Source: Bdellovibrionota bacterium (GTDB lineage Bacteria > Bdellovibrionota_C > UBA2361 > OMII01). From it: a stretch of 64,000 nt of DNA. Positions 10,556 to 42,546 of this stretch are shown here, one piece after another (within the stretch, counting starts at the first letter, position 1; each line of letters opens with the position of its first letter). Where the stretch lies: NCBI GenBank assembly GCA_044345405.1, contig JBIJBE010000017.1, positions 1-64,000 of the forward strand, given 5' to 3'. The position numbers and the translations under genes were made by a program. The notes under the pieces were generated by a model. The model was not told the origin of the DNA. It did no database searches and saw only the letters and a list, made by a program, of their open reading frames with translations.

Positions 10556-11419
10556 ATGAGCGAGTCGGACACCGTCACGAAACTCAATTCCCTTATAGCG
10601 AAGGGGCCGCCCACAACTCTGGCATTTCAAAAGTTCGCGCTCGGGTACTTCAAGAAACATGGCCGAGACTTTCCGTGGCGTGAGACGAAGGACCCGTACA
10701 AGGTTCTCGTGAGCGAGGTAATGCTTCAACAGACTCAAACTGAACGTGTCGTGGTGAAGTACGCCGAGTTTCTTAAAGCGTTCCCAACGTGGAAGGCGTT
10801 AAGCGAGGCGACGCCAGCGGATGTTGTTAAGGTGTGGATGGGGCTCGGTTACTACCGGCGCGCGTTTAATTTGCATAAAGCGGCGCAGTGCGTAGTACAA
10901 GAGCATGGAGGTGTGCCACCACAAACAGCGGAAGGTTTAAGAAACTTACCGGGTGTTGGTCCTTATACAGCGGCGGCTGTCGCGGCATTTGCCTTCGGTG
11001 AGCCAGCGCCGATGATTGAGACCAATATTCGCTCCGTTTACTTGTACACATTTTATCCACAGGTGTGCGCGGTGAGCGACAAGCAGATTCTTCAAAAAGT
11101 TGAGGAGACCCTCTACAAACGAGATCCTCGTTCTTGGTTCTACGCGCTCATGGATCTCGGCGTTGAGCTGAAGAAACACACGAAAGGGATAAACCAACGA
11201 AGCAAACACCACGTGAAGCAATCTAAGTTTAATGGTTCGTTACGACAGGTGCGAGCGGCGGTGCTTCGCGCTATCGCTGAAGGGGAGAGTCTTCGACGCG
11301 CCGACATAGCGCGTAAGCTGTCATACGACACTGAAAAGATCGAAGCGGCGATCGCGGCGCTTCAGTCGGACGGATTGATAGAGAGTGTTCGGGGTGGGCG
11401 GTTCGCGATAGTTGGGTAG
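10556..11419 (+). CDS. mutY: A/G-specific adenine glycosylase, short Fe-S-less MutY type
   Basis: RDFPWR, VSEVMLQQT, WMGLGYYRRA, HhH LPGVGPYTA; no Cys cluster motif. Confidence 0.88.
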   Translation: MSESDTVTKLNSLIAKGPPTTLAFQKFALGYFKKHGRDFPWRETKDPYKVLVSEVMLQQTQTERVVVKYAEFLKAFPTWKALSEATPADVVKVWMGLGYYRRAFNLHKAAQCVVQEHGGVPPQTAEGLRNLPGVGPYTAAAVAAFAFGEPAPMIETNIRSVYLYTFYPQVCAVSDKQILQKVEETLYKRDPRSWFYALMDLGVELKKHTKGINQRSKHHVKQSKFNGSLRQVRAAVLRAIAEGESLRRADIARKLSYDTEKIEAAIAALQSDGLIESVRGGRFAIVG

Positions 11420-11448
11420 GAATCATTTCGGCGGACGGGGCGCACGAC

Positions 11449-11681
11449 GGGAGGGCGACCGTCCCCGGTCGCCGAAAAGTTGCGCATCGCGAAGGACCAT
11501 CGCCTCTCGCAACGCGGCGGTCAGGAATGACCGCCCTCCCGGATCACGGGCTCGCATAACGGGAGGGCGACCATTCCTGGTCGCCGAAAGGTTGCATATC
11601 GGTAACGGATTTCGCCCTACGCCACGCGGCGGTGAGGATCCCACTTCGCTACGCTACCAGAGACAAGCTGACCGCCCTCCC
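11449..11681. repeat. Two REPIN-like inverted pairs of 26-bp REP-like units
   Basis: GGGAGGGCGACC-N6-GGTCGCCG at 11449-11474 and 11561-11586; inverse units CGGCGGT(C/G)AGGA..TGACCGCCCTCCC at 11515-11540 and 11627-11681; lies between convergent genes. Confidence 0.8.
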
Positions 11682-12669: not shown

Positions 12670-14577
12670 ATGCATCGTTCTAAACATACACAAGTTGTGG
12701 TTGTAGGAGGGGGGCACGCCGGGATAGAGGCTGCCTACGCTTCGGCTCGGGCAGGGGTTCCTACCGTCCTTGTATCCCTGCGTCAGGATGGAATCGGTCA
12801 GATGTCCTGCAATCCAGCCATCGGAGGAGTGGGCAAGGGGCACCTGGTTAAGGAGCTCGACGCTCTCGGTGGCCTTATGGGGCGAGCCATCGACGCGACA
12901 GGTATTCAGTTTAAGACCCTGAATTCGAGCAAGGGAGCGGCTGCTCAGGCGACCCGCGCTCAGGCAGATCGAGATCTCTATAAGGGATGGGTTCAGCGAT
13001 TTCTCACTGGCGTTCCCAATCTGACCATCGTCGAAGGGGAGGCCGCGTCGGTTGAGGTCGAGGGCAATACCGTTGTCGGTGTTCGCCTCGCGGACGGTTC
13101 GTTCTTGAACGCGGGTGGAGTTGTTCTCACCACCGGAACCTTCCTTCGGGGGTTGATGCACACCGGCGACTCTCAGACCCAAGGTGGTCGCCTCGGTGAT
13201 AAGGCCTCAAACGATCTCAGTGATTCCCTTCGCTCCCTTGGCTTCTCGCTTGGAAGACTCAAGACCGGAACTCCTCCACGGCTTCGTCGTTCAACGATTA
13301 ACTTTGAGGGACTTGTTGAGCATCCAGGTGATACCCCACCACCGCCGTTCTCATTCATGACGAAGTCGATCAACCGCCAGCAGATCTCGTGTTGGCAGAC
13401 GACAACGAATGAAGAGATCCATGATCTGATTCGAGAGAATCGGGAGCACAGCCCGATGTTCAACGGACAAATTAAATCTGGCGGGCCTCGGTATTGTCCA
13501 TCGATCGAGGATAAGGTGTTTCGATTCGCCGATAAGAAGAGTCACCCCGTGTTTCTTGAGCCAGAGGGGTTCACCTCGGATATCGTGTATCCGAACGGGA
13601 TCTCCACATCGCTCCCATTCGATATTCAGCAATCGTTCATCCGAAAGATTAAGGGACTTGAGAACGTTGAGTTCTTAGCCCCCGGATACGCGGTTGAGTA
13701 CGATTTCGTGGATCCCCGAGAGCTGCTTCCAACCTATGAGACGAAAGGGATCTCGGGTCTCTACCTCGCGGGGCAGATAAACGGAACAAGTGGCTACGAA
13801 GAAGCAGGGGCGCAAGGTCTGATTGCGGGCGCGAATGCCGCTTTAAAGATTCTTGGCAAGGAGCCGCTCATCATCTCTCGAGGGCAGGGGTACATCGGCG
13901 TTATGACGGATGACCTCACAACAAACGGGGTCGATGAGCCGTATCGTATGTTCACCTCGCGCGCTGAATACCGTTTAATTCTGCGCGAAGATAACGCCGC
14001 CGCTCGCCTGTGCCCGATTGCCTTGCGGTATGGATTGTTGAACGAAGATCAACGCGCCGCGTTTGAGGAGCGACAGAGCGCCTATGAGCGGGCGACGACC
14101 TGGCTCTCAGCTACCTACGCCAAGCCAAGCGAGTCGACGAACGCGTGGCTTGAGCAAAAAGGCACCGCGACCCTTAAAGACCGAGCGTCGCTCGCCCAGC
14201 TCGTAAAACGACCGCAGCTTTCACTCGATGATATATTGGAACAGTTCCCTTACGACGAGGAGCTCTCAACCGATCTTCGCGCCGCGGTCGAGATCGAGTT
14301 TAAGTTTCGAGGATATCTCGATCGTCAGGAAGATGAGGTTCGGCACTTAAAGAAGATCGAGTCAGAGGTCATTCCGGCTGATTTCCCCTATGAACAGATT
14401 AAACAGCTCCGTCGAGAGGCTGTTGATAAGTTGCGTAAGCACCGTCCCGCATCTATCGGACAGGCTTCTCGTATCTCCGGAATGACACCGGCTACGATCT
14501 CTATCATCGCGATGTATCTGAAGCGATACAGAGAGGGGCTGTTTTGCGTCGAGTCTTCTGAAAGTTCGAGATCGTGA
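12670..14577 (+). CDS. mnmG: tRNA uridine-5-carboxymethylaminomethyl(34) synthesis enzyme MnmG (GidA)
   Basis: [66 protein letters not shown]. Confidence 0.98.
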
Positions 14578-14693
14578 CGAGGACAGACAGGAAGGCGTGA
14601 TTGAGTTTCTCTCGTGACGCGCTGGTTTGGAAGAAATGAGCCGAGCATACTGTCGCCCCTTTTTTATTATTTGTTAGTGGTACTGGTAGTTGT

Positions 14694-14969
14694 ATGGCGA
14701 ATGTCACCCCAGCTTTGCGGCATGTGAGGGTTCCGGAATTAGTTCTATCGCTCAGTATGGCGACGTTGAGTCTGCCGTTTTACCAGGCAGCCCGTGATCA
14801 GCGTAAGTTCGCGGACGATATCCAGCGAGAATATCCAAGTCAGAGTGAGTACATCCGAGCCAACGCCGAGCTCCCTCAGGCGCTTGGCAATACCCTGGCC
14901 GGCACCGCCGCTCTCGTGTTCCCATTCTGTTTTAAGAGGGGCAGGCGAAAAGAGGACGAACGGTCTTAG
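14694..14969 (+). CDS. Small hypothetical membrane protein
   Basis: 91-aa ATG ORF with two hydrophobic segments and a basic tail; no family recognised. Confidence 0.4.
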   Translation: MANVTPALRHVRVPELVLSLSMATLSLPFYQAARDQRKFADDIQREYPSQSEYIRANAELPQALGNTLAGTAALVFPFCFKRGRRKEDERS

Positions 14970-29007: not shown

Positions 29008-32000
29008 CTAGGCGGCGCGGTCCGCCAGAAGCTCCGAGTGCATCGCAATTCGCTCCTTGAGCGCCGCGCCCCATGGGGTCTTCGCCGTCACTAATCCGTG
29101 CGGAACTCCCTCGTAGACGATCGTGCCTCCAGCGGCGCCCGCCTCGGGACCAAGCTCAATAACCCAATCGGATTGGGTGATCATATCGGCGTCGTGCTCA
29201 ATGACGATAACCGAATTGCCCTGGTCAACGAGAGCGTGAAGTCCTTTAAGCAGAAGATCCACATCGAGGCGATGAAGGCCAGTGGTTGGCTCATCGAGGA
29301 TGTAGAGTGTGTGCCCTTTGCGAGATTGATGCAGCTCGGAGACGAGCTTTAATCGCTGACTCTCACCACCGGAGAGGGTTGATGACGGTTGCCCAAGGGT
29401 GAGGTATCCGAGCCCAAGATCGCAGGCGAGCTTGCACACCTGATGAATCTTTCGGTGATTGATAAAGAAGGTGCGAGCCTCATCAAAGGTGAGTTGAAGA
29501 GATCGGCTGATTGAGAGGTCGCGGAACTTAACCGTATCCGCCTCAGGTGTGAAGCGGCTTCCCATACAACTTTCGCATTCCACTTTCGCCTCAGCGAGGA
29601 AGCTCATCTCAAGTGTGAGTTGTCCCTGCCCCTTACACGTTGGGCATCGTCCTTTGCCGGTGTTGTGAGAGAAGAAGCTCGGTCCCCACCCGCGAGATTT
29701 CGCCTCAAGTGTCTCGGCGAATACCTTACGAATCTCATCCCATATTCCAAGGTATGAAGCCGGAGTCGATCGCGAGGTCTTTCCGATCGGCTGTTGATCG
29801 ACGATCAGGAACCTATCGATCTTTACCGAGGTCTCAACCGAACCGTGGCGTCCGTCAAACGCCCCCTTCTTGTCAGCGCCTCCGTCGAGCGCTTCTCCGA
29901 TCACGCCGTGAACCAGGGAGCTCTTTCCGGCCCCGGACACTCCGGCGACAGTAACAAGGCTGCGCAACGGAACCGTAACATCGAGGGACTTAAGGTTGTT
30001 CTTGGTCGCCCCACGAATGGTCAGCTTCTCTTGTGAGGTAAGGATCTCTTTGTTGATATGCAGCTCTCGGGTAAGCGCCAGCCCGGTGAGTGACTTCTTT
30101 GAAGCTACGGCGTCGTTCACGGAACCTTGGAATACTATCTCGCCACCGTGGGTCCCAGCTCCTGGTCCTACATCAATGATCTCCTCAGCCGCGCGAATGT
30201 TATCGATCTCGTGCTCAATTTGAATCACGGTGTTCCCGCGGTCCTTTAATTCAACGAGCTTTCCGATGAGTCTCTTGTTATCCGCGGGATGGAGCCCGGC
30301 GCTCGGCTCATCGAAGATGTAGGTAACGCCGCAGAGCGGAGAGCCGATAGCGGTGCCAAGGCGCAGTCGTTGCAACTCACCGTTGGAGAGGGTCGCGCAC
30401 TCGCGGTTAAGCGAGAGGTGGTCGAGTCCAAGATGAGTAAGGGTATCGAGCTTGCCGTTCAGCTCTTGCACAATAGGGTCCGCGATAAACGAGAGTGACG
30501 TATCCGCGGATATCTTTTTGAGCGCCTTTCGCAGATGAACGGAGGAGAGCGCCGTAAGTTCAAAGATGTTCTTGTCGAGGAGGCGGATATTTCGCCCGAT
30601 CTCGTTGATGCGAGAGCCGTTACACGTTGGACATACCTTGTTTCGAACGCTTCCGTAGCCATCACACTTAGGACATCGTCCTCGTCGCGAGTTGAAGGAG
30701 AGATCCTCGGGGTCAGGTTTAAAGAACCCGCGCTGACAGATACGGCATGTTCGTTCCGAACTGAACACGCGTTCTCCTGTCGGGCCGACTACAATCACCG
30801 TGCCGCCACCGATACTGAGCGCCTGTTGAACTCCCTCAGTGATGAGATCAACGGGCATGGTCTTGGCGTTAAAGCGAGCTGTTACGTAATCGATAGAGTG
30901 GATCTTTGTTTTGGCGAGTCCTTCGTCAACGAACTTAGAGGGGGGCGCTATCACATCATCAACCCGAACCTCAGAGATCTCAGTTTCGATCGCGCGTTGA
31001 AACACCGCGCGGTGGTGTCCCTTCTTGTTGTTAATCACTGGTGCCAAGAGGCGGATGCTTCCCGAGTAGGCGGACTTAATGTGCTGCGCTATCTGTTCCG
31101 CTGAAAGGGGGGAGATCGACTCCTCAGGGTGATCGGGGCAGTACTGAATACCGATCTTAGCGAAGAGGAGACGTAGGAAATTATACACCTCGCTCATCGT
31201 TGAGACGGTTGAGAGCGCCGAGGGCTGGAAGGTGTGCTGGTACACACAGATAGTTGGTTGAACGTGGGAGATGTCATCGATCGCGGGCTTCTTCAACTCT
31301 TTGATGAATTGGCGAGCGTAGGGAGAGAGACAATCGAGGTATCGTCGTTGGCCCTCAGCATAGAGGATATCCTTCGCGATAGTTGACTTACCCGAACCCG
31401 ACACACCGGTGAGGGTTATGAGTGAATTAAGCGGGATTGAGACGTTAATATCTTTAAGATTGTGCTCCTTCGCTCCTCGGATGTGGATGTGGGTCGCGGG
31501 AGTTTTTGCTGCGCGCTTGTTCGGTCGAGCTTTGCTCTTCGTTGCTCGAGTCTTTTGAGGCCGAGCGTACTGCTTCGCGAACTGCGCGAGGTAGTGCGCC
31601 GTGAGGCTCTTTCGACCTGTGGCGCCGATCGGATCTCTGACGAACTCAGCGGGCGTGCCAACTTTCATAATCTCACCACCCTTAGTGCCACCTTCGGGAC
31701 CAAGGTCGATGACCCAATCGGCGGCGGCGATGAGGCGCAGGTTGTGCTCAACGCAAAAAATAGAGTGTCCTTGCTGCCTGAGATAGTGGAAGAGTTCAAT
31801 CAAGCGCTCGACATCCCGCACGTGGAGTCCCGTGGTTGGCTCATCAAAGAGAAAGAGCGAGGTGCCTCGTGACCCTTCCATAATGTGAGGGACAAGCTTC
31901 AAGCGCTGCGCCTCTCCACCGGAGAGGTCGCTCAACGGGTGCCCGAGGGTTATGTGCCCAAGTCCAAGCTGCGAGAGTACTTTGCAGACGCTTGAGATGA

Positions 32001-34392
32001 GGAGGTCCTTATCGAAGAATTCGCGACAGGCGTCGACGCTCATCGAGAGGATCTCGTGGACGTTTCGTCCATGGTACTTTACTTCAAGAACTGAGGCTTG
32101 AAAGCGCATCCCGAGGCACGACTCGCACTCCATGAAGACGTCGCTGAGGAACTGCATATCCTCACGAATGAATCCGGCGCCCTCACACGCGGGACACCGC
32201 CCGCCCGCGACGTTAAACGAGAAAGATGACTTGGAGAGCCCGCGGGCTTTGGCTTCATCGGTTGAAGCTAACAGGTCTCGGACGCGGTCCCACATCTTCG
32301 TGTAGGTGGCGATATTGGCGCGTGGTGTTTTTGAAAGTGGGGACTGATCGATGAGGAGGACCTGTCGGACGTGGTGGAATCCAGTGACCTGCGCGTCGAC
32401 CGTGCTCTCGCCTGGAATGACACCGGTGTACAGTTCGTAGGCGTTTTCGATTACCTCTTTCAGGAGTGAGCTCTTTCCGCTACCCGAAACACCCGTGAGG
32501 CATACGAACGATTCGAGCGGAATATCGACCGCGAGAGACTTTAAATTTCTATTGCGAGCGTTTCGAATCTCAAGTCGCTTCGCGAAGAGTGGTGGCGAGT
32601 CGTTTAAGTCAAATGGCCGCATCCCCAGCCCCTGCCACTCCTCTTGAGGGCCGCAGAAGGTAACCTCGCCACCTTTCTCGCCCGCCTCAGGCCCTAGCTC
32701 AACGATGGTATCGGCAGCCTCAAGGCAATCGGGATCGTGCTCTACGACCGTGAGAGAGTTGCCACGGTCGGTGAGATCATGGAGCGCTTTAATAAGCTCC
32801 TCTGTGTCACGGGCGTGGAGACCAACAGAGGGCTCGTCCAACACGAAGTGGGTTGAGATGAGATTGCTTCCAACCGCGGATACAAGATTTACTCTTTGCG
32901 TCTCACCGCCGGAGAGTGTGCGAGAGAGTCGATCGAGGGAGAGGTAGGGGAGCCCAAGCGACACGAGGTAGTCCAGTCGACTCGAGATATTTTTAAACAC
33001 CTCCGCTAACTGTCGTGGGAGGCGCTTCGCTTCCTTTAAGGATTTTTGAAGTGAGGTGAACCACGGCGAGAGTTCGTCGAGGGGCATCGAGGAGACCTCG
33101 GCAATCGTTCTCCCATCGATCTTATAGGCGAGGGCGTCCGATTTAAGGCGGGTGCCTCCACAAACGGAGCATTCAACCTGCCCCCGATATCGGGCGAGGA
33201 AGACGCGCACGTGCATCTTGTACTTCTTTCGCTCTAGCCACTGAAACCACGGATTGATGCCGATGTAGGTCCGGGACTTGTGGTTAAAGATCTGATCCTG
33301 TTGCTCCTTTGAGAGCGATGCCCACGGCGCGTCGATCGGGATCCCCTCGCTCTTACAAAAGGAGAGGAGCCTTCGATGCTCATCAGAAGCGGAAGGCCCC
33401 TTCCAACACTCAACAGCGTAGCTCGCGATAGACTTGCTATGGTCAGGTACGCACTTGTGAGGATCGATAACGAGCACCTTCCCGAACCCGTTACACTCGG
33501 GGCACGCTCCGATCGGGTGATTGTAGGAGAAGAGTGAGGGGCGAGGACGCTCAATCGAAACCTCCCCATCGCCGCAGTGATAGGTGTTCTTAAAGATGTG
33601 GGTCTCGTAGCGTTGATGTGGTTCGTGCGCGGTACCGGAAACCGGAACGCGAAGCCACGGGCGAGCGGAGCGAGTTCGTACCTCGATCGCCTCTACGGTG
33701 CCGTTTCCTAACGCGAAACATTGCTCGAGGGATTCTCTGACCCGCTCAGGTGTGAATGAGGAGCTCGAACAACGGTCGAGAATGATCGAGACCTCCTTGA
33801 GCTTCTTAAGGGGAGGGGTATCCTCAAGATTCTCCAGGTTGCCCTTCTTTTTATCAAAGTACCGTGAGTATCCGAGCATCTGGAGTCGCTCGAGGACCTC
33901 TTTTGAGTTCTTAACCTTGAGACCCAGGAGAAAGGTGGAATCTCGTTTCGTCTCGACCCATTTCGCAAGGAGCGAGGTGAGGGACGAGGCATCCCACCGA
34001 GAGAGCTCAAGACCACACTCTGGACACACCGGTGTCGCGACGTTGCTCCACACAATTTTAAGAAAATCGTTGATGTCGGTCATCGAGCCGACCGTGGACC
34101 GAGAGTTGACGATCCGTGTGCGTTGTTGAATGGCGATGGCTGGTCGAACGTTCTCGATCAGGTCCACCTTGGGACGTTTGACCTTATCAAAGAATTGCCT
34201 GGTGTAAGGAGAGAAGGTTTCGATGTACCGCCGTTGTCCCTCAGCGTATATAGTGTCGAAGGCGAGCGATGATTTACCAGAGCCGGAGAGTCCGGTTATC
34301 CCGACAAACGTATCGTGTGGCAGGTCGAGGTTGAGAGCTTTAAGATTGTTCTCTCGGGCCTGTCGTATGGTGAGTTTTGAGCGAGACGACAT
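29008..34392 (-). CDS. uvrA: Double-length (tandem fused) excinuclease ABC subunit UvrA
   Basis: Two UvrA modules (each with YAEGQRRY); four Walker A ([16 protein letters not shown] x2, GVSGAGKS), four ABC signatures, CxxC zinc fingers; 1794 aa. Confidence 0.95.
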
Positions 34393-34457: not shown

Positions 34458-35690
34458 ATGCGCATGGTTTCGAGGCACATATTCAACAGTTCGCTGAAGG
34501 TGCTTACACCTGTCTTCCGGGTACCTATGGGATTGGCGGCAGTGTTGTGCCTCTTGATGGGACCGATCGCGACGGCCGAGCCACATATGTGCGGTATAAC
34601 TGAGAGCGCGCTTAAGGAAGCCGCGAAGCTCCGCGCGCTTTCCCCGAAACATCCGGTCCCATGTGTTGTGCGTTCGCGTCCGGAGATCGAGGTGTTTCTT
34701 CGAGACACCATCGCTAAGAAGTTTCCGAAGGAGACCTTGGCGATGGAGCAGCTTTGGTACCAAGCTATTGGTATCGTGCCGGATGACTACCCCTACGAGA
34801 AAGAGATTGTGCAGGCTTATGTGCAGCAAATCGGTGGCTATTACGATCCTGACAGGAAGGAGTTCGTGATGCTCGATTCTATGCCCGAAAAGCTTCAAGT
34901 TCCGGTAGCTGTTCATGAGCTCATCCATGCGTTGCAGGACCAGAAGTTCGGGCTCTCTCACTTTCTTGATCCTAAGGAGCGAGAGAGCGACGATCTCATG
35001 GCTCGAGCCGCTCTCGTTGAGGGGGACGCTACCGCAATCATGCAGGAATTTATGACCAGCAAATCGAGCAGGTCGCCAAAAGGTCTTTCAGAGGTCACCT
35101 TGCCAGAGTCCGTCGCCAAGATTCCTGAAGCCTTGGAGCGAATCCTGCTTTTTCCCTATCTTGACGGCCTAACGTTTGTTCGTCACGTGCAACGGTTCGG
35201 TGGGATTTCGGCCATAAACGCGGCTTTTTCTAATCCGCCCAAGACATCTCGAGAGGTTCTCCATCCAGAGCAGTATGTGCATCGCTCGTTCAAGCCAGAG
35301 GAGCTTCCGCGCGAGGATGTTGAACGCCCCATTGAAAAGGCCTCCCCCATCTACGCCGATACGGTGGGAGAGTTCGCGGTGTCCGCGCTCTTAAGTACCG
35401 CCTTGTCATCGAAGCACAGGGGCGCCGCATGCGCGGAAGGATGGCGAAGGGATAGAGTTATAATCTTTAAGGGAGATAGCGATACGAGATTCGTCTCGTG
35501 GATGAGTGAGTGGGATTCTAAGGATGAATCGACCGAATTCTATGAGTGTTATCGGGAGATGATAAAGGCTCGGTATCAAAAAGATGTTGGCGGCGAGTTT
35601 GTTTCCGTTTCTCCCGCAAAAGCTATCAAGATATCTCGCTCCGAACGTCGGGTGTCGGTGTTGGTAGCGCTCGGTTCAAGCGCTAAGTAA
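34458..35690 (+). CDS. Secreted zincin-type metallopeptidase
   Basis: GGYYDP, AVHELIHALQDQ (HEXXH), ALVEGDAT, FPYLDG, EVLHPEQY; start uncertain (34458/34464/34527). Confidence 0.8.
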   Translation: MRMVSRHIFNSSLKVLTPVFRVPMGLAAVLCLLMGPIATAEPHMCGITESALKEAAKLRALSPKHPVPCVVRSRPEIEVFLRDTIAKKFPKETLAMEQLWYQAIGIVPDDYPYEKEIVQAYVQQIGGYYDPDRKEFVMLDSMPEKLQVPVAVHELIHALQDQKFGLSHFLDPKERESDDLMARAALVEGDATAIMQEFMTSKSSRSPKGLSEVTLPESVAKIPEALERILLFPYLDGLTFVRHVQRFGGISAINAAFSNPPKTSREVLHPEQYVHRSFKPEELPREDVERPIEKASPIYADTVGEFAVSALLSTALSSKHRGAACAEGWRRDRVIIFKGDSDTRFVSWMSEWDSKDESTEFYECYREMIKARYQKDVGGEFVSVSPAKAIKISRSERRVSVLVALGSSAK

Positions 35691-35776
35691 ACGGTTCTCA
35701 CAAGGAGGGGGCTATGCTTCTCTTTATCTCCCTTGAGCGATACATGGTGACGGACGTAGTTACTCCGCACGCTCGA

Positions 35777-36010
35777 CTAATCTAGCAACGTATTGAAACC
35801 TATCCGAGCCTTCCTTTTTGGTAGGCGAAGCTCTCCGAGAGGGTGCCTATCGTTATTGGGTTCCGTTGAGGTGTTTGCCGCGTCGATAGGTACGGGAGGT
35901 GACGGTGAGTAGCGAGGTGAGGGCTCTAACATATCGGACCAAAGTCCGTAGATGTCGCTATCTTGCCCGATTGGAGCAGGAGCTGCTGAGAGCGTTTTTT
36001 GTGTATTCAT
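35777..36010 (-). CDS. Small Pro-rich hypothetical protein
   Basis: ATG preceded by GGGAGAGGA RBS; 77 aa. Confidence 0.5.
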   Translation of the reverse strand: MNTQKTLSAAPAPIGQDSDIYGLWSDMLEPSPRYSPSPPVPIDAANTSTEPNNDRHPLGELRLPKRKARIGFNTLLD

Positions 36011-36102
36011 GATGTAGTCCTCTCCCTGTGGTTAGGAAACCGTAGCATGGAAAGCTTATTTCAAAGTCTCGGATAGTAGCGACGGATTGATAAATGCGGC
36101 AA

Positions 36103-36142
36103 TGAAAGGGGGGAAAGGGGGCCGTCCCCTTTCCCCACTTTC
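36103..36142. repeat. GC-rich palindrome (REP-like or terminator-like)
   Basis: GAAAGGGGGGAAAGGGG-GCCGT-CCCCTTTCCCCACTTTC. Confidence 0.5.
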
Positions 36143-36365
36143 TGACGCCCGAAGTTGCCATCTCAAGACGCACGGACACCTGCACAAGTCGACAGGGCTA
36201 GAAAGGAAAGTCGCTCATAGAGGGCTGCAACACGAAAAAGGCAGATAGTCATGACTGACACACATTTCCCTTCGTAGGTGGGGAAAATTTCATAAAGCCC
36301 GCGCAACTTTCGCCGCGCGCTACCGATTGTCAGCCATCACCCGTTAATAATCTTCGGAGTCCCTT

Positions 36366-37271
36366 ATGAATACCGTATTCACCGTCACTACTCTCTTTTC
36401 ACTCCTGCTCAGCTTCGCGCGCTCTCCGGTAAGTCTTGATGTCGAACGCACGGTCTCAAAGCGGGAGATGCAGCTCATCTTAGCGGCCTTTGAGGTGGAT
36501 GGCCCGGGGATGACAAAGCAGGAAGCGGAGTTCGCTCGCGCGGCTTTGTTTAAGGCACGCCGCTCCTTGAGCCCTGAGGCGCAATCAGCGGCCGATCTAT
36601 GGCTCGCGAAATCAACGAGTGCCGAGAGCGTTAAGTCACTACCCGTGCGTAGGGTTGAGGCATTTCGCCTTACCTCTGCTTGGTTGCGTGAGATGCGCGG
36701 AACCCAGAGATTGACCGAAGGCGATGCTGGCCTCTTGCTCTCCATACTCGGCTCTAAGCCGAATCCGGTTCGTGCCTATGAGCTGTCCCTGTGGGCTGCT
36801 CGTGAGCCGCTCACCTCTGATGCCAGGGTCGCGGTTGAGCGCTGGATAGCTCGGAGCATCCCTGACTATGGAAACATCCCAGTGGTAAGGGTCATTTCGC
36901 CCGCTATCGAGGGGCTTCAGTGGATGAGCGAGTCTGATTTTCCGATAGGGGTAGTGTGTTTTCCAAAGACTCATCTCTGGCCCCTTACCAAGGCGCAGAT
37001 GCAGAGGCAACTTGGGGAGCCACCTGCGGTGCCAAGCACCGTGAGGTCGATAAGTCAGCTCTTTGGTTGGGTCTCAACGGCGTTACTGGATAGCGATGCG
37101 GCAGAGAGAGCGCGTGCGAAGCGCTTTGATACACTCCGTCGCGTCCTTCAGGAGAACCTTACGTCGATAAGGGCCTACACCTTTGGAGAGATCGACCAGG
37201 ATCTCTTGATTCTCGGAGAATCCAAGGAGAACAGGATATGTGGTATCGTTACTCGGGTTGTGGAGACCTAG
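36366..37271 (+). CDS. Nuclease A inhibitor (NuiA)-family domain protein with N-terminal signal/helical extension
   Basis: C-terminal domain EGLQWMSESDFPI ... GEIDQDLLILG...GIVTRVVET matches the NuiA pattern; hydrophobic N-terminus. Confidence 0.75.
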   Translation: MNTVFTVTTLFSLLLSFARSPVSLDVERTVSKREMQLILAAFEVDGPGMTKQEAEFARAALFKARRSLSPEAQSAADLWLAKSTSAESVKSLPVRRVEAFRLTSAWLREMRGTQRLTEGDAGLLLSILGSKPNPVRAYELSLWAAREPLTSDARVAVERWIARSIPDYGNIPVVRVISPAIEGLQWMSESDFPIGVVCFPKTHLWPLTKAQMQRQLGEPPAVPSTVRSISQLFGWVSTALLDSDAAERARAKRFDTLRRVLQENLTSIRAYTFGEIDQDLLILGESKENRICGIVTRVVET

Positions 37272-37362
37272 GGACGCGAGGCAAAACCTCCTATTCTCCC
37301 TCGTTAACGTGCTCGAGAACGTGACCGTACTCGAACCTCAAACTAAAAATCCCCAAGGCCTT

Positions 37363-37414
37363 TGGTGCACCCTACTTTATCGGATCGCCTATCCTCAAAA
37401 AGTAGGGTGTGCCA
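37363..37414. repeat. Inverted-repeat mini element
   Basis: TGGTGCACCCTACTTT-N20-AAAGTAGGGTGTGCCA. Confidence 0.65.
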
Positions 37415-37463
37415 GGGGGCATGACCGGGGCATTCTCGCCTCCGCTTGATCCCCTTGTTAGCC
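37413..37463 (-). other. attC site, truncated at R'
   Basis: Minus strand GGCTAAC-AAGGGGATCAAGCGGAGGC-GAGAAT-GCCCCGGTCATGCCCCCT then runs into the IR element. Confidence 0.6.
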
Positions 37464-37519
37464 TATGACGAAACATTTTCGTAGATCTCCCGATATCTCC
37501 ATTGTTTGGAGAAGCTACC

Positions 37520-38008
37520 GTGACCGATCGAATTGAATCTCTCATTTACATTATCCGAGAGGAGCGGGTGATGATGGATCAGGATTTAGCAGCGCTCTAT
37601 GAAGTTGAGACCAAGGCTCTCGTCCAAGCTGTTCAACGAAACATTAAGCGATTTCCCCCTGATTTTATGTTTCAGTTATCCTTTCAGGAGTTTACAGCTT
37701 TGAGGTCACAAATTGTGACCTCAAAGGGGCGAGGAGGACGGCGAACAGCCCCGTACGCATTCACCGAACATGGCGTCGCTATGCTCTCAAGTGTGCTGCG
37801 GAGCGAGCGTGCAGTGGAGATAAACATCCAAGTCATATGAGCATTTGTCAAACTTCGACAACTTGTCGCCTCAAATGCAGAGTTGACCGGCCGATTGAAA
37901 CGTCTCGAGCAAAACTATGATGCGCAATTCAAGGTCGTTTTCGACGCGATCCGGCAGCTCATGAGCGAAACGACACACGTGCCACCGAAGAGAAGAATCG
38001 GATTCTAG
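37520..38008 (+). pseudogene. ORF6N-domain DNA-binding protein with internal nonsense codon
   Basis: [50 protein letters not shown]; in-frame TGA at 37838-37840 where I-R-AFV is expected; frame continues AFVKLRQ...KRRIGF to TAG 38008. Confidence 0.85.
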
Positions 38009-38010
38009 AA

Positions 38011-38217
38011 TTATCGAGATGGGCGCTCCTCCGAAAGCGCTCGCAGAATCGAGAGTAACCATGGGGAGAGAAAAAATCCCGTCGGCGGCACCAGCGCGTC
38101 TATGAGTGGGCGATCGGAAACAATGACTACCAACACGAAAATCATAGTCACATAGGCGATACCCGTGATGGAGAGCCACCGCTCACGGCTTGTCTCCCAT
38201 GCCTTATTCGACTCCAC
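38011..38217 (-). CDS. Small hypothetical membrane ORF (possible cassette remnant)
   Basis: 68 aa, GTG start, hydrophobic segments; lies inside the array. Confidence 0.3.
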   Translation of the reverse strand: MESNKAWETSRERWLSITGIAYVTMIFVLVVIVSDRPLIDALVPPTGFFLSPWLLSILRALSEERPSR

Positions 38218-38341
38218 TCGTTAATTGCGATTGCATATAGCGGTAAGTTCTTTCTCAACATCAGCGAGCCGCTCTAGGAGCTTGCGTCGTTCGATGGCGT
38301 CTTGCTGGACGGTTTTGTTACTGATGGGTGAGTTGCTTTGG

Positions 38342-38397
38342 GGATAACGGCGAAAATCTGCGGCGCTGCATTCGCCCGCAGGATTTGATTGTTATCC
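38342..38397 (-). other. attC site (56 bp)
   Basis: Minus strand GGATAAC-AATC-AAATC(C)TGCGG-GCG..CG-CCGCA-GATTT-TCGCC-GTTATCC, with an extra unpaired base in L''. Confidence 0.8.
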
Positions 38398-38443
38398 ACT
38401 ATTAAAGGCGAAACTTTCAATCGTTTTTCACGATTACGTATGT

Positions 38444-38950
38444 ATGGAGCACAAAATTGAATCAAAAATCATTACCATCAAGGGACAGCGCGTCATCCTC
38501 GATAGCGACTTAGCTCAGTTATATGGGGTCAGCACGATGCGTCTCAATGAACAGGTTACTCGAAATCTTCGCCGATTCCCGAGTGACTTCATGTTTTCAC
38601 TGTCGTTCCAGGAGTTTAAAGACTTGATATCGCAAAATGCGATATCAAGTTCTCGACACGGTGGGAGAAGAAAACCACCTCGATTCTTCACCGAATACGG
38701 CGCAGTAATGGCAGCCAATGTGCTGAATAGTGATGTCGCGATTGATGCGAGCATCATGATAGTCAGAGTGTTTATAAGATTAAAAGCAATCGCGCAGGAA
38801 CACGCAGACCTCAAAGCCAGGTTGCAGATGTTGGAGCAGAGGGTTGCCAAGGGATTTTCCGAGCATGCCGAGGAGCTTCAAGAAATTAGATTTGCGCTAG
38901 CAAAACTTGAGGAGCCACCGGAACCTCGGAAGAGGCGGCTCGGATTCTAG
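38444..38950 (+). CDS. ORF6N-domain DNA-binding protein
   Basis: IKGQRVILDSDLAQLYGV, RNLRRFPSDFMF, FTEYGAVMAANVLNS, C-terminal coiled coil and RRLGF. Confidence 0.92.
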   Translation: MEHKIESKIITIKGQRVILDSDLAQLYGVSTMRLNEQVTRNLRRFPSDFMFSLSFQEFKDLISQNAISSSRHGGRRKPPRFFTEYGAVMAANVLNSDVAIDASIMIVRVFIRLKAIAQEHADLKARLQMLEQRVAKGFSEHAEELQEIRFALAKLEEPPEPRKRRLGF

Positions 38951-39048
38951 AATTAGGTGAAGGTTTGCGCGGCGAGTTTCGCACAAGAACCTACCTAGTC
39001 AAAAAGGATATCTAAAGGAGCAAAATCCTGTGCACTTAATTGTTATCC
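38951..39048 (-). other. attC site with non-canonical R'
   Basis: Minus strand GGATAAC-AATTAAGTGCACAGGATTTTGC ... GCAAACCTTCACCTAATT followed by CTAG instead of GTT. Confidence 0.55.
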
Positions 39049-39423
39049 CGCCTTCGTGTCTTGACTAAAGACATTCTTCCAGTGCCCGTCAGCGTTTTGC
39101 CAAAGAGAGCTGATATACATTTTCTCCGGCACACTATCTGAGGAGCCGTTCGCTCGCACCCAAACAGCGAGGTACAGGAGCATAACTAACGACTCAGATA
39201 AGACTAGAATTTGTGGATCTCGAATTTCGTATCGCCGCGCCAAAGGCCCGTTTCGCAGGGGCGCACAGTGAGCCTGTTTCCCGGTAAAGCCAGTCGAATA
39301 AACTCCGATAAAGTTATCTGCCAGCACTCGCGCATCAGCTTCGGCGTCTCCAGCGACAAAGGCATCCCAAACTTGGGATTCGAGAGCGATGAATTGATCA
39401 ACTGTTAATCGTTGTGGCTGCAT
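39043..39423 (-). CDS. NTF2-like/SnoaL-like (DUF4440) cassette protein
   Basis: ALESQVWDAF..GDAEAD..LADNFIG, SSLW..DGHWKNVFSQDT; stop lies in attC R''. Confidence 0.85.
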   Translation of the reverse strand: MQPQRLTVDQFIALESQVWDAFVAGDAEADARVLADNFIGVYSTGFTGKQAHCAPLRNGPLARRYEIRDPQILVLSESLVMLLYLAVWVRANGSSDSVPEKMYISSLWQNADGHWKNVFSQDTKAG

Positions 39424-39439
39424 TTTGGCTCGCGAAGTG

Positions 39440-39533
39440 GGATTACGTTTCAAACAACTTGCCGACCTTTAACTCGTCTCACTTATCACCAAGCTATTCA
39501 ATGGGTCGGCTCAGTTGCTTTGCCTGGTTATCT
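39440..39533 (-). other. attC site (94 bp), R' mutated to GTA
   Basis: Minus strand AGATAAC-CAGGCAAAGCAACTGAGCCGACC ... GGTCGGCAAGTTGTTTGAAAC-GTAATCC. Confidence 0.75.
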
Positions 39534-40001
39534 CCCATTCGTGCGGCGAATTTTCGTTCCCACCTGGCCTAACGACATAAACAAAATTCCACCTGCAAAA
39601 AATAAAGCAAAAGTTGGGAGAATGAATTCTCTTTCCGGTTGCCTAAGATAATTGGGATTATCTGGCAAATACGAAAATTCAATTTTTGCGCCTTCTGTTA
39701 ACCAGTCAGATCCAAGCAAAGTTCCTGTTTGTAGACGTCCAGAGGTATCTTGAAACTCCACCGTATAAAGTGGCCTTCGGATTATTCGTGGGCCGCCAAA
39801 GTGTCCTCGCATCATGCTGTATTTGCCAACCACACCAGGAGGGCTACCGATATCGTTTTCCTTGATTTGAAAGGAACGAACAGTTCCACGGGTAGTAACC
39901 GCATGTCGTACAAAATTGTAGTAATCAAAAAGAAAGTATAGCGAATAACCTAACGAAACTGCGCCTATTAGAATTAAAGCTAAGCGAATTAATTTTATCA
40001 T
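39528..40001 (-). CDS. DUF3592-like membrane protein (cassette)
   Basis: N- and C-terminal TM helices, TRGTV, YTVEF, YLPDNP; low GC; stop lies in attC R''. Confidence 0.75.
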   Translation of the reverse strand: MIKLIRLALILIGAVSLGYSLYFLFDYYNFVRHAVTTRGTVRSFQIKENDIGSPPGVVGKYSMMRGHFGGPRIIRRPLYTVEFQDTSGRLQTGTLLGSDWLTEGAKIEFSYLPDNPNYLRQPEREFILPTFALFFAGGILFMSLGQVGTKIRRTNGR

Positions 40002-40036
40002 TTAACGCAGGTTATACACTGGCAGGCAATTTAGGG

Positions 40037-40129
40037 AGATAACTTTGCGCGGAGCACGGCGAGCCACTCCACAATTTAAATTACATACTCACTTCGCGGG
40101 CTCGCCTGTGTTCCCGCGCTTGGTTAGGC
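40037..40129 (-). other. attC site (93 bp)
   Basis: Minus strand GCCTAAC-CAA-GCGCGG-GAACAC-A-GGCGAGCC ... GGCTCGCC-GTG-CT-CCGCGC-AAA-GTTATCT. Confidence 0.85.
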
Positions 40130-40483
40130 ATCATCTGCTCCTTCTAACTCTTCGGGCTCGAACTTGTCAGTGCCCATAACACGACCAAAAGCAGAGCCAG
40201 TGGGCGCCTGAAGAAATGGAATGATGGCAGGATCATAATTGCAAAGAGTGTTCACCTCATAAATCGCAAAGTGATCTGGGTTGTCTGAATACTCCTGCGA
40301 CTCGTCACCGGCGAAGAACCTCCAGCCACTGTCATTTTCTTTGTCGGGCTGCTCTCGGTACATGTAGCCAATCCGCGCGCCGTCCACCGTGATGCGGTCT
40401 GACGCGTAGCAGCCGCCCATGTTCGGAATGAGTCTCTGAATCTGGTCGCCTGGAATCTTAAAAGCTTTATCGAGCGGATTCAT
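40124..40483 (-). CDS. DUF2185-domain (putative immunity-type) cassette protein
   Basis: GGCYASDRI, GYMYRE, DSGWRFFAGDE, NTLCNYDPAIIPFL. Confidence 0.85.
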   Translation of the reverse strand: MNPLDKAFKIPGDQIQRLIPNMGGCYASDRITVDGARIGYMYREQPDKENDSGWRFFAGDESQEYSDNPDHFAIYEVNTLCNYDPAIIPFLQAPTGSAFGRVMGTDKFEPEELEGADDA

Positions 40484-40735
40484 ACTAAGATGCCTAACAT
40501 AGGTATTGTGCAGATCCGGCGATCTAGCACGTTACGTGTCAGTAATAGGGTACGGCACCTCGCATCTCTACCTCAACCACAATTAATTCTTCATAATTGC
40601 AGCCGGTTAAGGCGGTCCTCTCTTTCAGGCCTATCCGGTGTGTACGTCGAGTGAGGTAGATCACCGGATCGGCGATTGCATGAAACGCGATCGTTTCGAA
40701 CTCCTATTGAGTAAAACCAGTTCCTCGACGGAAGT

Positions 40736-42109
40736 CTAAAACTCCCCGCACTCACAACGAAGCGCCTCTTCAAGTTGCGGAAGGATATAGGTGTAGCCTG
40801 AATCAACCAACGCTCGTGGAGCCACTCGACAACTCGCAAGGAGCACCGCGTCAGCCACTTCGCCGAACATCAATCGCAATATAGCGGCGGGCACTGGAGC
40901 GATGGTGGGTCTTCGCAAGACCTTGCCAAGGGTCTTCGTGAATTCTCGATTTGTTACAGGCTCTGGCGCCACGGCGTTAAACGCGCCACGCATCGAAGAT
41001 GTGTAGATAGCGTGCTCAAAGATTCCGAGGAGATCTTGAAGCGCTATCCAACTCATGTACTGGCGCCCACTGCCAAGAACGCCCCCCGCGCCAAGTTTAA
41101 AAATCGGAAGCATCTGTTTAAGAGCGCCGCCGGCGGCGTTAAGAACGGTGCCGATCCGAATGTGAACCAGTCTTGTTGAATCGTGGATATTGTCTCGAGA
41201 GCTTGCCTCCCACGCTTTGCATGTCTCAGCAAGAAAGCCGGATCCTGCAGGTGACCGTTCATCGGCAACTGTTTCTCCCGTATCGCCGTAGTAGCCTATC
41301 GCGGAGGCCATAATCACAACCTCAGGCTTACGCTCTAGTTGGGCGATAGTTTTGCAGAGAAGCGCTGATGACTTTGTGCGGCTCTCAAGGATCCTTCGCT
41401 TATACTCTGGGGTCCATCGATGCCCGACGAGGCTCTCTCCGCCGAGATGAATCACGACATCCACTCCCTCAAACACAGAAGGATCGAGCACGTGTCGATC
41501 TGGGTCCCAACTCCTCTCTTCAGGATAGCGAGCGGGGTGACGAACAAGCCGCCGAACGGTGTGGCCAGCGGTTGAGAGGAATGCGCACAGCGCTGATCCT
41601 ATGAATCCGGAGGAGCCGCTTACCAAGATGGTCTTACGAGGAGCGTCTTTGAAGCGCGCGTGCAGATCCAAATCATTCTGTAGAATCATGTGACGGTATC
41701 GAAATAGACGATTCAGCTCTCGGATAACGAGCGGTTTCGCCAAACCGATACCATAGGGAAGAGCGAAGTGTATCTCGTCGCGCATGCAGCACGATCGTTC
41801 GTTGTTCGCGATGAAGCGGTGGTAGTGCTTCCACGATCGAAAGGGACCCCGCACCTGCTCGTCACAAAACTGCTCGTTCTCACGGTATTCCCGATGAATG
41901 AGCCTCCAAGAGATGCCGAGTGGACCCAGCACTGGTATCTTGATGTGGACCGGAGAACCGTCACGGAGAGACTCAGGAGGCTGAATCACCCGGACGGGAC
42001 GCCACGGAGGATTGAATCGCTCAAAGGCGCCGGTTCGCGTGTGCCAGGCGAAAACCTCCGTTGGAGAGTGAGGAAGAACACTTTCCCGGCAAAACGAAGG
42101 ATTTTTCAA
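40736..42109 (-). CDS. TIGR01777-family NAD-dependent epimerase/oxidoreductase with N-terminal SRPBCC domain
   Basis: FAWHTR..FCDEQVRGPFRSWKHYH; SGSSGFIG, ASAIGYYG, GSGRQYMSWI, NAVAPEPVTN. Confidence 0.9.
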   Translation of the reverse strand: MKNPSFCRESVLPHSPTEVFAWHTRTGAFERFNPPWRPVRVIQPPESLRDGSPVHIKIPVLGPLGISWRLIHREYRENEQFCDEQVRGPFRSWKHYHRFIANNERSCCMRDEIHFALPYGIGLAKPLVIRELNRLFRYRHMILQNDLDLHARFKDAPRKTILVSGSSGFIGSALCAFLSTAGHTVRRLVRHPARYPEERSWDPDRHVLDPSVFEGVDVVIHLGGESLVGHRWTPEYKRRILESRTKSSALLCKTIAQLERKPEVVIMASAIGYYGDTGETVADERSPAGSGFLAETCKAWEASSRDNIHDSTRLVHIRIGTVLNAAGGALKQMLPIFKLGAGGVLGSGRQYMSWIALQDLLGIFEHAIYTSSMRGAFNAVAPEPVTNREFTKTLGKVLRRPTIAPVPAAILRLMFGEVADAVLLASCRVAPRALVDSGYTYILPQLEEALRCECGEF

Positions 42110-42114
42110 GATCG

Positions 42115-42546
42115 TTATCCTACTACGCGCTTCGCGATCTCGCTTGCGCTCTTGCCGTCGTATTGGCCAGCGTAGTTGTCTTTGAGATGTTTCATCACCA
42201 CGTTGAGCGCGAGGCCGGGCGTGTTCTCTTTGAGAGTGACGAGGATCTTTTCAAGCTCTTCCGCGGAGAGTTGTTTCGGTAAGAACTCTTCGAGGATAGC
42301 GATCTCAGCCTCAAGTTTAGCTTTCTGCTCAGCTCGGCCCGCTTGCTCTTCAAATTGAATCGCCTCTTGGCGTTTCTTGACCTCACGTTGCACGATTTGA
42401 AGACTCTCAGTAGCTCCGAGCTCATCAACGGATTTTTGCATCTCTTCGTACTGCATCTCACTGAGCACTGAACGGATAGTTTCAAGTCGCAACTTGTCTT
42501 GAGCTTTCATGGCGCTTTTGAGCGCTTCCTTGAGAGTGGCTTTCAT
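42115..42546 (-). CDS. GatB/YqeY domain protein
   Basis: LKSAMKAQDK.RLETIR, KKRQEAI, EIAILEEFLPKQLS, DGK; start ATG 42546. Confidence 0.9.
   Translation of the reverse strand: MKATLKEALKSAMKAQDKLRLETIRSVLSEMQYEEMQKSVDELGATESLQIVQREVKKRQEAIQFEEQAGRAEQKAKLEAEIAILEEFLPKQLSAEELEKILVTLKENTPGLALNVVMKHLKDNYAGQYDGKSASEIAKRVVG

Follow-up and report, generated by a model that had tools for sequence, protein, structure and literature searches.

The DNA analysed here (hereafter the window) comprises the first 64,000 nucleotides of contig JBIJBE010000017.1 (C5) from the 3.59 Mb draft genome of a Bdellovibrionota bacterium (GCA_044345405.1; G000, 85 contigs). Between 37413 and 40672, on the minus strand, it holds an array of gene cassettes with attC recombination sites, which a first-pass annotation, made from the letters alone, had read as an integron array without an adjacent integrase gene (intI), i.e., clustered attC sites with no integron-integrase beside them (CALIN). 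Covariance-model matches and variation of the cassettes among relatives bear out this reading, and the array is a CALIN left by integrase loss. Of more interest is that a complete attI head was retained and that the first cassette still seems to be exchanged. The explanation we regard as likely is that the cassettes belong to a second integron of the chromosome, which lost its intI by deletion, kept its head and is still serviced in trans.

In the proposed course of events, intI would have been deleted in the ancestor of at least three species of an uncultured freshwater Bdellovibrionota genus, a fourth species (G011) keeping a longer remnant. The head, composed of the attI GTT, two dyads and a promoter-like element, would have been retained, with minus-strand cassettes of an open reading frame (ORF) and an attC site behind it. 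The integrase IntI encoded on contig C49, the sole intact integron integrase in the genome, would then act in trans, inserting and excising cassettes at 40496-40498. With inner junctions mutated in the GTT triplet and distal units without recognisable attC hairpins, the inner part of the array would be fixed.

Cassettes and attC sites

Cassette A (40043-40497, minus strand, 455 nt) contains an ORF at 40483-40124 for an Imm33-domain protein (Pfam, E 2.1e-34) and attC_A at 40129-40037 (93 nt; R'' GCCTAAC, R' GTTATCT). Cassette B (39446-40042, minus strand, GC content 0.42) encodes a predicted membrane protein of 157 aa (ORF 40001-39528), for which no match was found in Pfam, NCBIfam or PADLOC, and contains attC_B at 39533-39440 (94 nt; R'' AGATAAC), with R' mutated to GTAATCC (39446-39440). 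Cassette C (39006-39445, minus strand) carries a DUF4440 ORF (Pfam, E 3.6e-16) running from an ATG at 39423 to 39043, and a short degenerate attC (attC_C) with R'' GGATAAC at 39048-39042, which ends in GATATCC (39012-39006). In cassette D (38342-39005, minus strand), an ORF6N-domain gene on the plus strand (38444-38950; Pfam, E 3.8e-30; PADLOC family PDC-S05, E 1.8e-46) lies antisense to the array beside attC_D (38397-38342, 56 nt). NCBIfam gave no name for any cassette protein.

All ten sequences quoted in the first-pass annotation were found at the positions it assigned to them, and the complementarity of cassette ends that it had claimed was reproduced: GATGCCTAAC (40489-40498) against GTTAGGCATC (40123-40132) at 10/10, GGGAGATAAC (40034-40043) against GTTATCTCCC (39527-39536) at 10/10, and GTGGGATTAC (39437-39446) against GTTATCCCGC (39042-39051) at 8/10. 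That the start of each unit is the complement of its own end would be expected of formerly circular units. Perfect 10-nt GTT...AAC inverted pairs spaced by 200-1500 nt occur at 121 distinct places in the genome, about one per 30 kb, so that end complementarity alone is weak evidence; it is convincing only in combination with ORF tiling, hairpins, model matches and comparison with relatives. The local drop in GC content described earlier was likewise recovered (0.42-0.50 in four array units vs. 0.53 in the whole window).

Candidate sites were folded as DNA of the plus strand of the window, which is the bottom strand of the array, and were compared with 200 shuffles each. As features of an attC site, R'' RYYYAAC, R' GTTRRRY, an imperfect hairpin, extrahelical bases on the 3' arm of the bottom strand and a length of ~55-140 nt were required. 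Folds better than nearly all shuffles were obtained for attC_A (40037-40129; −20.1 kcal/mol, z −3.67, 0/200 shuffles as good), attC_B (39440-39534; z −2.68, 1/200) and attC_D (38342-38397; z −2.44, 3/200), and in these three sites the bulged bases are found mainly on the canonical side, the bottom-strand 3' arm. attC_A and attC_D showed every required feature, and attC_B all except R', which reads GTAATCC. The TAA stops of the three minus-strand ORFs (40483-40124, 40001-39528 and 39453/39423-39043) all lie inside an RYYYAAC-type box, as the first reading had it, but the imperfect hairpin that it placed behind each of them did not hold for the third ORF, where 38951-39049 folded no better than shuffles (z −1.2, 23/200 as good) and did not show the full set of attC features. 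The further attC-like sites proposed at 38342-38397, 37413-37463 and 38260-38322 fared differently: the first stood by its fold and by a model match (see below), whereas the other two behaved like shuffled sequence (z −0.16 with 73/200 as good, and z −0.25 with 76/200, respectively) and did not show the full set of attC features either. At 38009-38062, the fold was also no better than shuffles.

Two covariance models were built solely from intI-adjacent attC sites of contig C49 and of relatives, with none taken from the window: R1 from seven sites of 56-57 nt (G000-C49, G024 and G003), and R2 from two long sites (G003 and G019). On the minus strand, R1 matched 38342-38397 with 33.3 bits (E 1.4e-5; plus strand, 10.5 bits), and an unfiltered search of the window with R2 gave as its top match, at 22 bits (E 3e-5), another minus-strand site, 40037-40129. 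A lack of covariance-model hits, which had been named beforehand as the outcome that would speak against an array, was thus not what was found. The two matched sites provide the two or more neighbouring attC sites on one strand that mark a CALIN, here by custom models rather than those of IntegronFinder; the third site (39440-39533) was recognised by its structure only. MAFFT alignments of attC sites of mixed length were inconsistent with the structures and were not used for models.

It is extremely improbable that the array is not an integron at all, but a set of ordinary terminators or another repeat family with end complementarity arising by chance. Such a reading could draw on the background frequency of inverted pairs given above, on the 1013 matches returned genome-wide, on both strands alike, by a simple scan for AAC...hairpin...GTT (duplex energy ≤ −14), which was discarded as an attC detector for being too unspecific, and on Rfam, where no match at E ≤ 0.1 was obtained in 35000-42500. 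Against it stand the matches, on the expected strand, of models derived from intI-adjacent sites of relatives, a head homologous to intI-linked attI, breaks of synteny that coincide with crossover points, and a cassette-sized deletion whose ends are at crossover points.

The orphan attI head and the missing integrase gene

The orphan attI head extends over 40496-40672 (minus strand), as delimited by alignment with the intI-attI intergenic region of C49 and by conservation across copies. Read towards the array, it comprises an outer dyad O1 (40670-40657), which is an inverted copy of the inner dyad, a conserved block TACACACCGGA (40644-40634), a −35-like TTGAGG (40576-40571), a −10-like TACCCT (40552-40547), the inner dyad O2 TAGATCGCCGGATC (40526-40513) and the GTT crossover (40498-40496). 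Part of this region (40492-40536) had been put down as a degenerate attC; it does fold (z −2.27) but is attI, 40496-40672 being homologous to the C49 intI-attI region. Over 40440-40740, the minus strand of the window and the C49 region share 73% mean column identity, with the last ~37 nt, from about AACGTGCTAGATC to the GTT, nearly identical, followed by different first cassettes.

Of 35 genomes of the genus, 13 contain the motif GATCNNNGGATCTGCACAATACNTATGTT when up to 3 mismatches are allowed, with a total of 30 places; the reversed control was found at none. The sequence diverges immediately after the GTT in all 28 head copies that were fetched, and the letters that follow resemble cassette starts (ATCC, ATGC, AGGC, AGCC and similar); in the window, C49 and G015, these letters form the complement of the first-cassette R''. 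Across 27 aligned copies from 12 genomes, the head is ~180 nt long, with blocks conserved at ≥70% in a constant order: outer dyad GATCCGGTGATCTA, block TACACACCGGA, hexamers resembling TTGAG-18 nt-TAYCCT, inner dyad as an inverted copy, and GTT. As sequence of the same type adjoins a full intI in 6 fetched loci and ends there at GTT, the head was classed as attI. The dyads are of the type AGATC-N4-GATCT, and the hexamers, TTGAGG-18 nt-TACCCT in the window, are oriented into the array; judged by their conservation, they may form a working cassette promoter (Pc). Use of the dyad as a global regulon box, e.g. a LexA box, was considered and rejected, because TAGATC-N4-GATC occurs in the genome twice per head in both heads and elsewhere at scattered single places, which makes it specific to heads.

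A full integron integrase is encoded elsewhere in the genome, so that the earlier statement that there is none holds for contig C5, where the profile TIGR02249 had no match, but not for the genome. Matches to TIGR02249 were confined to contigs C49, C7 and C8, with one full integron integrase, on C49 (437.7 bits vs. a cut-off of 265, positions 1-315, no stops). Its product aligns end to end with VchIntIA (PDB 2A3V; E 3.4e-84, residues 10-326), including the inserted segment at about residues 205-235 and the C-terminal YTHV motif, and the gene is thus predicted to encode a full-length tyrosine recombinase with the IntI-specific extra domain. To the right of it lies a typical array, in which six attC sites (57-96 nt) are clearly recognisable and the cassette ends show the same complementarity. 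The protein of its first cassette is an Imm33 protein 47% identical to that of the window, and distal cassettes hold antisense ORF6N genes. Being the simplest candidate, from an integron with an almost identical attI, C49 IntI is most likely the enzyme that acts on the window head.

At the window locus, a polyketide-cyclase/epimerase fusion gene (40736-42109) ends with its stop codon 238 nt from the GTT. In the junction between that stop and the head (40673-40735), where an intI start would be expected, no intI frame is left before attI, so that the locus is not a complete integron. When the 2200 nt preceding the window attI on its upstream side were searched by tblastn with C49 IntI, nothing similar was returned, and with no intI within ~4 kb, the array also qualifies as a CALIN in this respect. 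The junction sequence after the epimerase stop is the same in the window, G020 and G015, and upstream of the heads of all three, tblastn with C49 IntI found no similarity; by eye, a CAT start codon and ~5 further codons were read as an intI remnant at the G015 junction. A longer intI remnant is present at the syntenic locus of G011. In total, tblastn upstream of the 28 fetched heads revealed a full intI in 6 cases, a remnant in 4 (covering residues 1-22, 11-39, 9-90 and 1-117) and none in 18, the window among them; 15 of these 18 have at least 1.1 kb of upstream DNA. Heads appear to arise by integrase deletion. Because attI, the intergenic region and apparently the first codons of intI were kept, the window locus is what was left after intI loss, which was one of two origins suggested in the first-pass annotation.

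That the window array and the C49 integron are one element, split by rearrangement or by the assembly, is very unlikely. Rearrangement can yield an integron plus a CALIN, as noted by Cury et al. 2016 (PMC4889954), and the genome is a draft of 85 contigs. Each locus, however, carries a whole head of ~180 nt that is distinct from the other one (73% mean identity over the alignment); there are exactly two occurrences of the head motif in the genome; and the window head lies mid-contig beside the epimerase gene, a position conserved in G020, G015 and G011.

Cassette turnover and its explanation

Arrays of relatives were compared at the same locus. In G020, where the flanks share 86-92% DNA identity with the window and the epimerase 96% amino acid identity, homology ends at 40495 and resumes at 38008, with 4.4 kb of other cassettes between the breaks vs. 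2.5 kb in the window. These replacement cassettes include several antisense ORF6N genes and have R1 matches on the expected strand, as does the G011 array. The shared distal part (36271-38008) is 96.2% identical to that of G020. Homology with G015 ends at 40493, and the ends of the G015 first cassette are complementary at 10/10. Directly after the GTT, the window reads AGGCATC, G020 ATACGTC, G015 AGGGTTC and G011 ATGCAGC. An integrase-less head beside the same epimerase gene is thus found in the window and in three other species, each with a different first cassette, and identical gene order without cassette variation, the other outcome named in advance as contrary to an array, was not observed. 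A variable attI side with a shared distal part is the polarity that would be expected for insertion at attI. The more distant G024, G009 and G001 have no insert the size of an array separating the epimerase gene from the peptidase or uvrA-like gene, which identifies 35.7-40.7 kb as a lineage-specific integron that lost intI later.

Variation was also found within a lake population, in contigs from public lake-water metagenomes (runs X22, X19 and X14). A contig of X22 (1616 nt, depth 12.3) joins 40039 to 40495 with 455 nt skipped and 4 ambiguous letters at the joint; what is absent is exactly cassette A, from the AAC of the attC_A R' to the AAC of attI. The remaining sequence of this contig deviates from that of the window at 5 of 946 letters and, over a further 669, at 22 letters plus one gap. 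X22, X19 and X14 also contain contigs that agree with the head and continue with unlike sequence from 40494-40496; one of them is the C49 junction. Because the intI-less junction is common to species whose flanks are 83-92% identical, and cassette A differs between near-identical strains, cassette movement post-dates the loss of intI. Capture in trans, the second origin suggested earlier, or excision in trans is likely, with first cassettes differing between species and within a lake population, and the head is probably still serviced in trans. In a metatranscriptome (X24), two contigs correspond to 39462-39690 and 40218-40432; as the RNA library may contain DNA, transcription is not thereby shown.

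A true array that was left by intI loss and no longer recombines, its differences predating the loss or arising by homologous recombination, gene conversion from the C49 integron or slippage, is an unlikely alternative. It accords with the mutated GTT triplets in the R' boxes of attC_B (GTAATCC, i.e., GTA) and attC_C (GATATCC, i.e., GAT), with distal sites that lack a fold, with a nonsense codon in one ORF6N gene, and with the region 36271-38008, common to G020 at 96% identity. The GTT triplet is essential for cleavage, and the mutated boxes would be expected to block recombination, so the inner part of the array is probably fixed. Three species with a shared intI-less junction and flanks at 83-92% nevertheless differ in the first cassette exactly past the GTT; precisely the 455 nt of cassette A are missing from a contig of ~97-99% identity to the window, and the joint has no more than 4 nt of shared sequence; and the same genome encodes an intact IntI, accompanied by a near-identical attI. 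The earlier claim that several R' boxes are mutated, which would freeze the array, is therefore borne out as to the two internal boxes, but with a polymorphic first cassette, freezing would concern the inner junctions at most.

Several points weigh against continued service in trans and against parts of the evidence for it. Models R1 and R2 were derived from few sequences (7 and 2, respectively), their E-values are rough, and attC_B and the distal sites were matched by neither. R2 also scored 18.5 bits at 11417-11485 on the plus strand, a GC-rich hairpin far from the cassettes, probably a spurious match of a model made from two sequences, and a filtered genome-wide search with R2 listed only a match of 16.9 bits on contig C60, without returning the window site; R2 was consequently taken as modest evidence. 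A scan of 37300-40800 for the sigma-70 consensus gave 0 promoter-like sites vs. a shuffle mean of 3.7. In G015 (L007, C336), a strong attC at 785-840 (R1, 59.1 bits) is oriented opposite to the array direction. Behind the cassette-A indel there could be an old polymorphism, or else rare slippage on the shared TAAC, and the differences between species could stem from homologous recombination with imported DNA; trans action itself is inferred, not observed. Finally, the relatives are all metagenome-assembled, and the multiple heads in bins G024 and G002 may partly represent mixed strains.

As a separate observation, the reversed attC of G015 adjoins a pair of small ORFs on the plus strand, read by eye as toxin-antitoxin, and an inversion or a second, converging array would be possible there.

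Comparison with known systems, other heads and neighbouring genes

The sedentary chromosomal integron of Vibrio cholerae resembles the present system in its integrase (the VchIntIA alignment above), in the position of the bulges on the canonical attC arm and in antisense cassettes with genes of their own, which here are toxin-antitoxin-like pairs and ORF6N genes; antisense toxin-antitoxin cassettes are typical of Vibrio arrays. In contrast, arrays in this genus are short, their attC sites are heterogeneous rather than of one family like the V. cholerae repeats (VCR), and there is more than one attI head per genome. In class 1 integrons, attI1 carries accessory IntI-binding repeats, DR1 and DR2. 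The head shares with attI1 a GTT crossover with conserved upstream repeats within ~180 nt, a divergent intI and a Pc (here putative) in the region, but there is no sequence similarity, and the head has as its repeats a 14-nt dyad in two inverted copies ~145 nt apart.

According to Cury et al. 2016 (PMC4889954), CALINs may originate by integrase loss in one of several integrons, and their cassettes may be mobilised by an integrase encoded elsewhere. The window array agrees with that class in having several attC sites and cassettes, no nearby intI and a complete integron elsewhere in the genome; it differs from the split-off CALIN given there as an example, which is described as beyond the reach of Pc, in keeping attI and a promoter-like element. 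Because it has kept its own attI and the conserved promoter-like element, the window array would be able to receive cassettes and not only donate them. A preprint on Xanthomonas (10.1101/2025.06.18.660453) also describes CALINs that can be mobilised in trans. Xanthomonas integrons are similar in forming an ancient chromosomal platform at a conserved locus with an often inactivated integrase, and Xanthomonas CALINs in occupying conserved loci away from intI. Integrase-less arrays in Xanthomonas are reported to be fixed, with the same two cassettes in all genomes of pv. citri, whereas the first cassette of the window varies, and the portion of the preprint at hand mentions no attI-headed CALIN, whereas heads occur here at up to 7 places per bin. 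A full-text literature search, with subscription journals and supplements outside its scope, returned no account of orphan or multiple attI sites, of integrons in Bdellovibrionota or of ORF6N genes in integrons.

As far as these sources go, the CALIN literature treats integrase-less arrays mainly as cassette reservoirs of unknown expression. If the docking site of the window array works, perhaps together with a promoter, the array would be a second active expression slot; this would change the number of genes that an integron can try at once, and the way in which surveys count integrons. Such heads go unseen because current software recognises attI of classes 1-3 only, as stated for IntegronFinder by Cury et al. 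2016 (PMC4889954). With one integrase, two heads, a single-cassette variant and two natural GTT mutants of attC, the locus may be regarded as a natural experiment on a trans-acting integrase.

Heads were further surveyed across the genus. At 20 further head loci, all 23 R1 matches (E ≤ 0.1) were both downstream of a head and on its strand, and 13 of the loci had at least one. G010 has one intI and 5 places with the head motif, all inside contigs of 46-172 kb; G024 has one full intI and 7 such places, the most per genome in the genus; the window genome has one intI and 2 heads. Mixed strains in these metagenome bins could account for some of the multiplicity, but in G010 the copies are well embedded in large contigs. 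One might tentatively picture a distributed integron, in which one integrase serves several promoter-equipped attI heads round the chromosome, an idea to which we give somewhat less than an even chance; if true, cassettes could be expressed from several first positions at once. On contig C194 of G024 (L028), tandem heads are located 3 kb apart, at 1114 and 4056. In the second of these, the outer dyad is missing and the head begins immediately behind the GTT of an attC-like site, as if recombination between an attC and an internal head site had moved part of a head together with promoter and attI; heads may also arise in this way.

ORF6N-domain genes (PF10543) accompany these elements. All 6 in the window genome are in or adjoin integron cassettes, and the 5 for which the cassette context was read are antisense to the array (window 2, C49 2, C21 1); those on C49 and C21 are located at C49:23796-26075 and C21:24434-24958. 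Syntenic arrays hold 4 further ORF6N genes in G020 and 2 in G011. These genes match the PADLOC candidate defence family PDC-S05 (E ~1e-46); according to a preprint (10.1101/2024.09.26.614923), one representative of this family, described there as having a RhuM domain, gave E. coli protection against T7, T5 and T4. The antisense ORF6N genes could be part of the system, their products either serving in phage defence as cargo or binding DNA at the head dyads.

Outside both arrays, attC-type sites were found at C21:23976-24031 (R1, 40.3 bits) and C36:504-556 (R1, 25.2 bits). The C21 site directly follows an ORF of ~167 aa, assigned as an acetyltransferase by eye only, and an antisense ORF6N gene is 400 nt away. 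Both sites look like small head-less CALINs.

Beyond cassette D, the array continues with a unit at 38009-38341 (minus strand) containing an ORF for 68 aa (38217-38011), which had no family match in Pfam, NCBIfam or PADLOC and is without a supported attC. The distal unit (37413-38008, minus strand) has an R''-like GGCTAAC at 37463-37457 with an unsupported hairpin and contains the second antisense ORF6N gene (37502-38008, plus strand; Pfam, E 9.5e-35), broken by a TGA at 37838-37840. A clean R' at the start of this unit and a distal end of the array were looked for, and neither was found. At position 37838, the window has T, giving the stop, contigs of X22 and X19 have A, and G020 encodes arginine (R); the break is therefore recent and strain-specific. 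An X19 contig joins the ORF6N paralogues at 38649 / 37697 with 10 other letters between, and could represent a recombinant, or else a third paralogue that belongs to another genome.

The adjoining region (36272-37412, plus strand) belongs to the lineage-specific insert common to G020 and contains a NuiA-like gene at 36366-37271 (Pfam NuiA, E 1.5e-23). Just past this gene, at the position corresponding to 36271-36273 of the window, G020 (L005, C271) has ~1.5 kb of extra DNA (13213-14725). Elsewhere in the window, 29008-34392 is occupied by an unusually long fused frame of 1794 aa with two UvrA-like halves.

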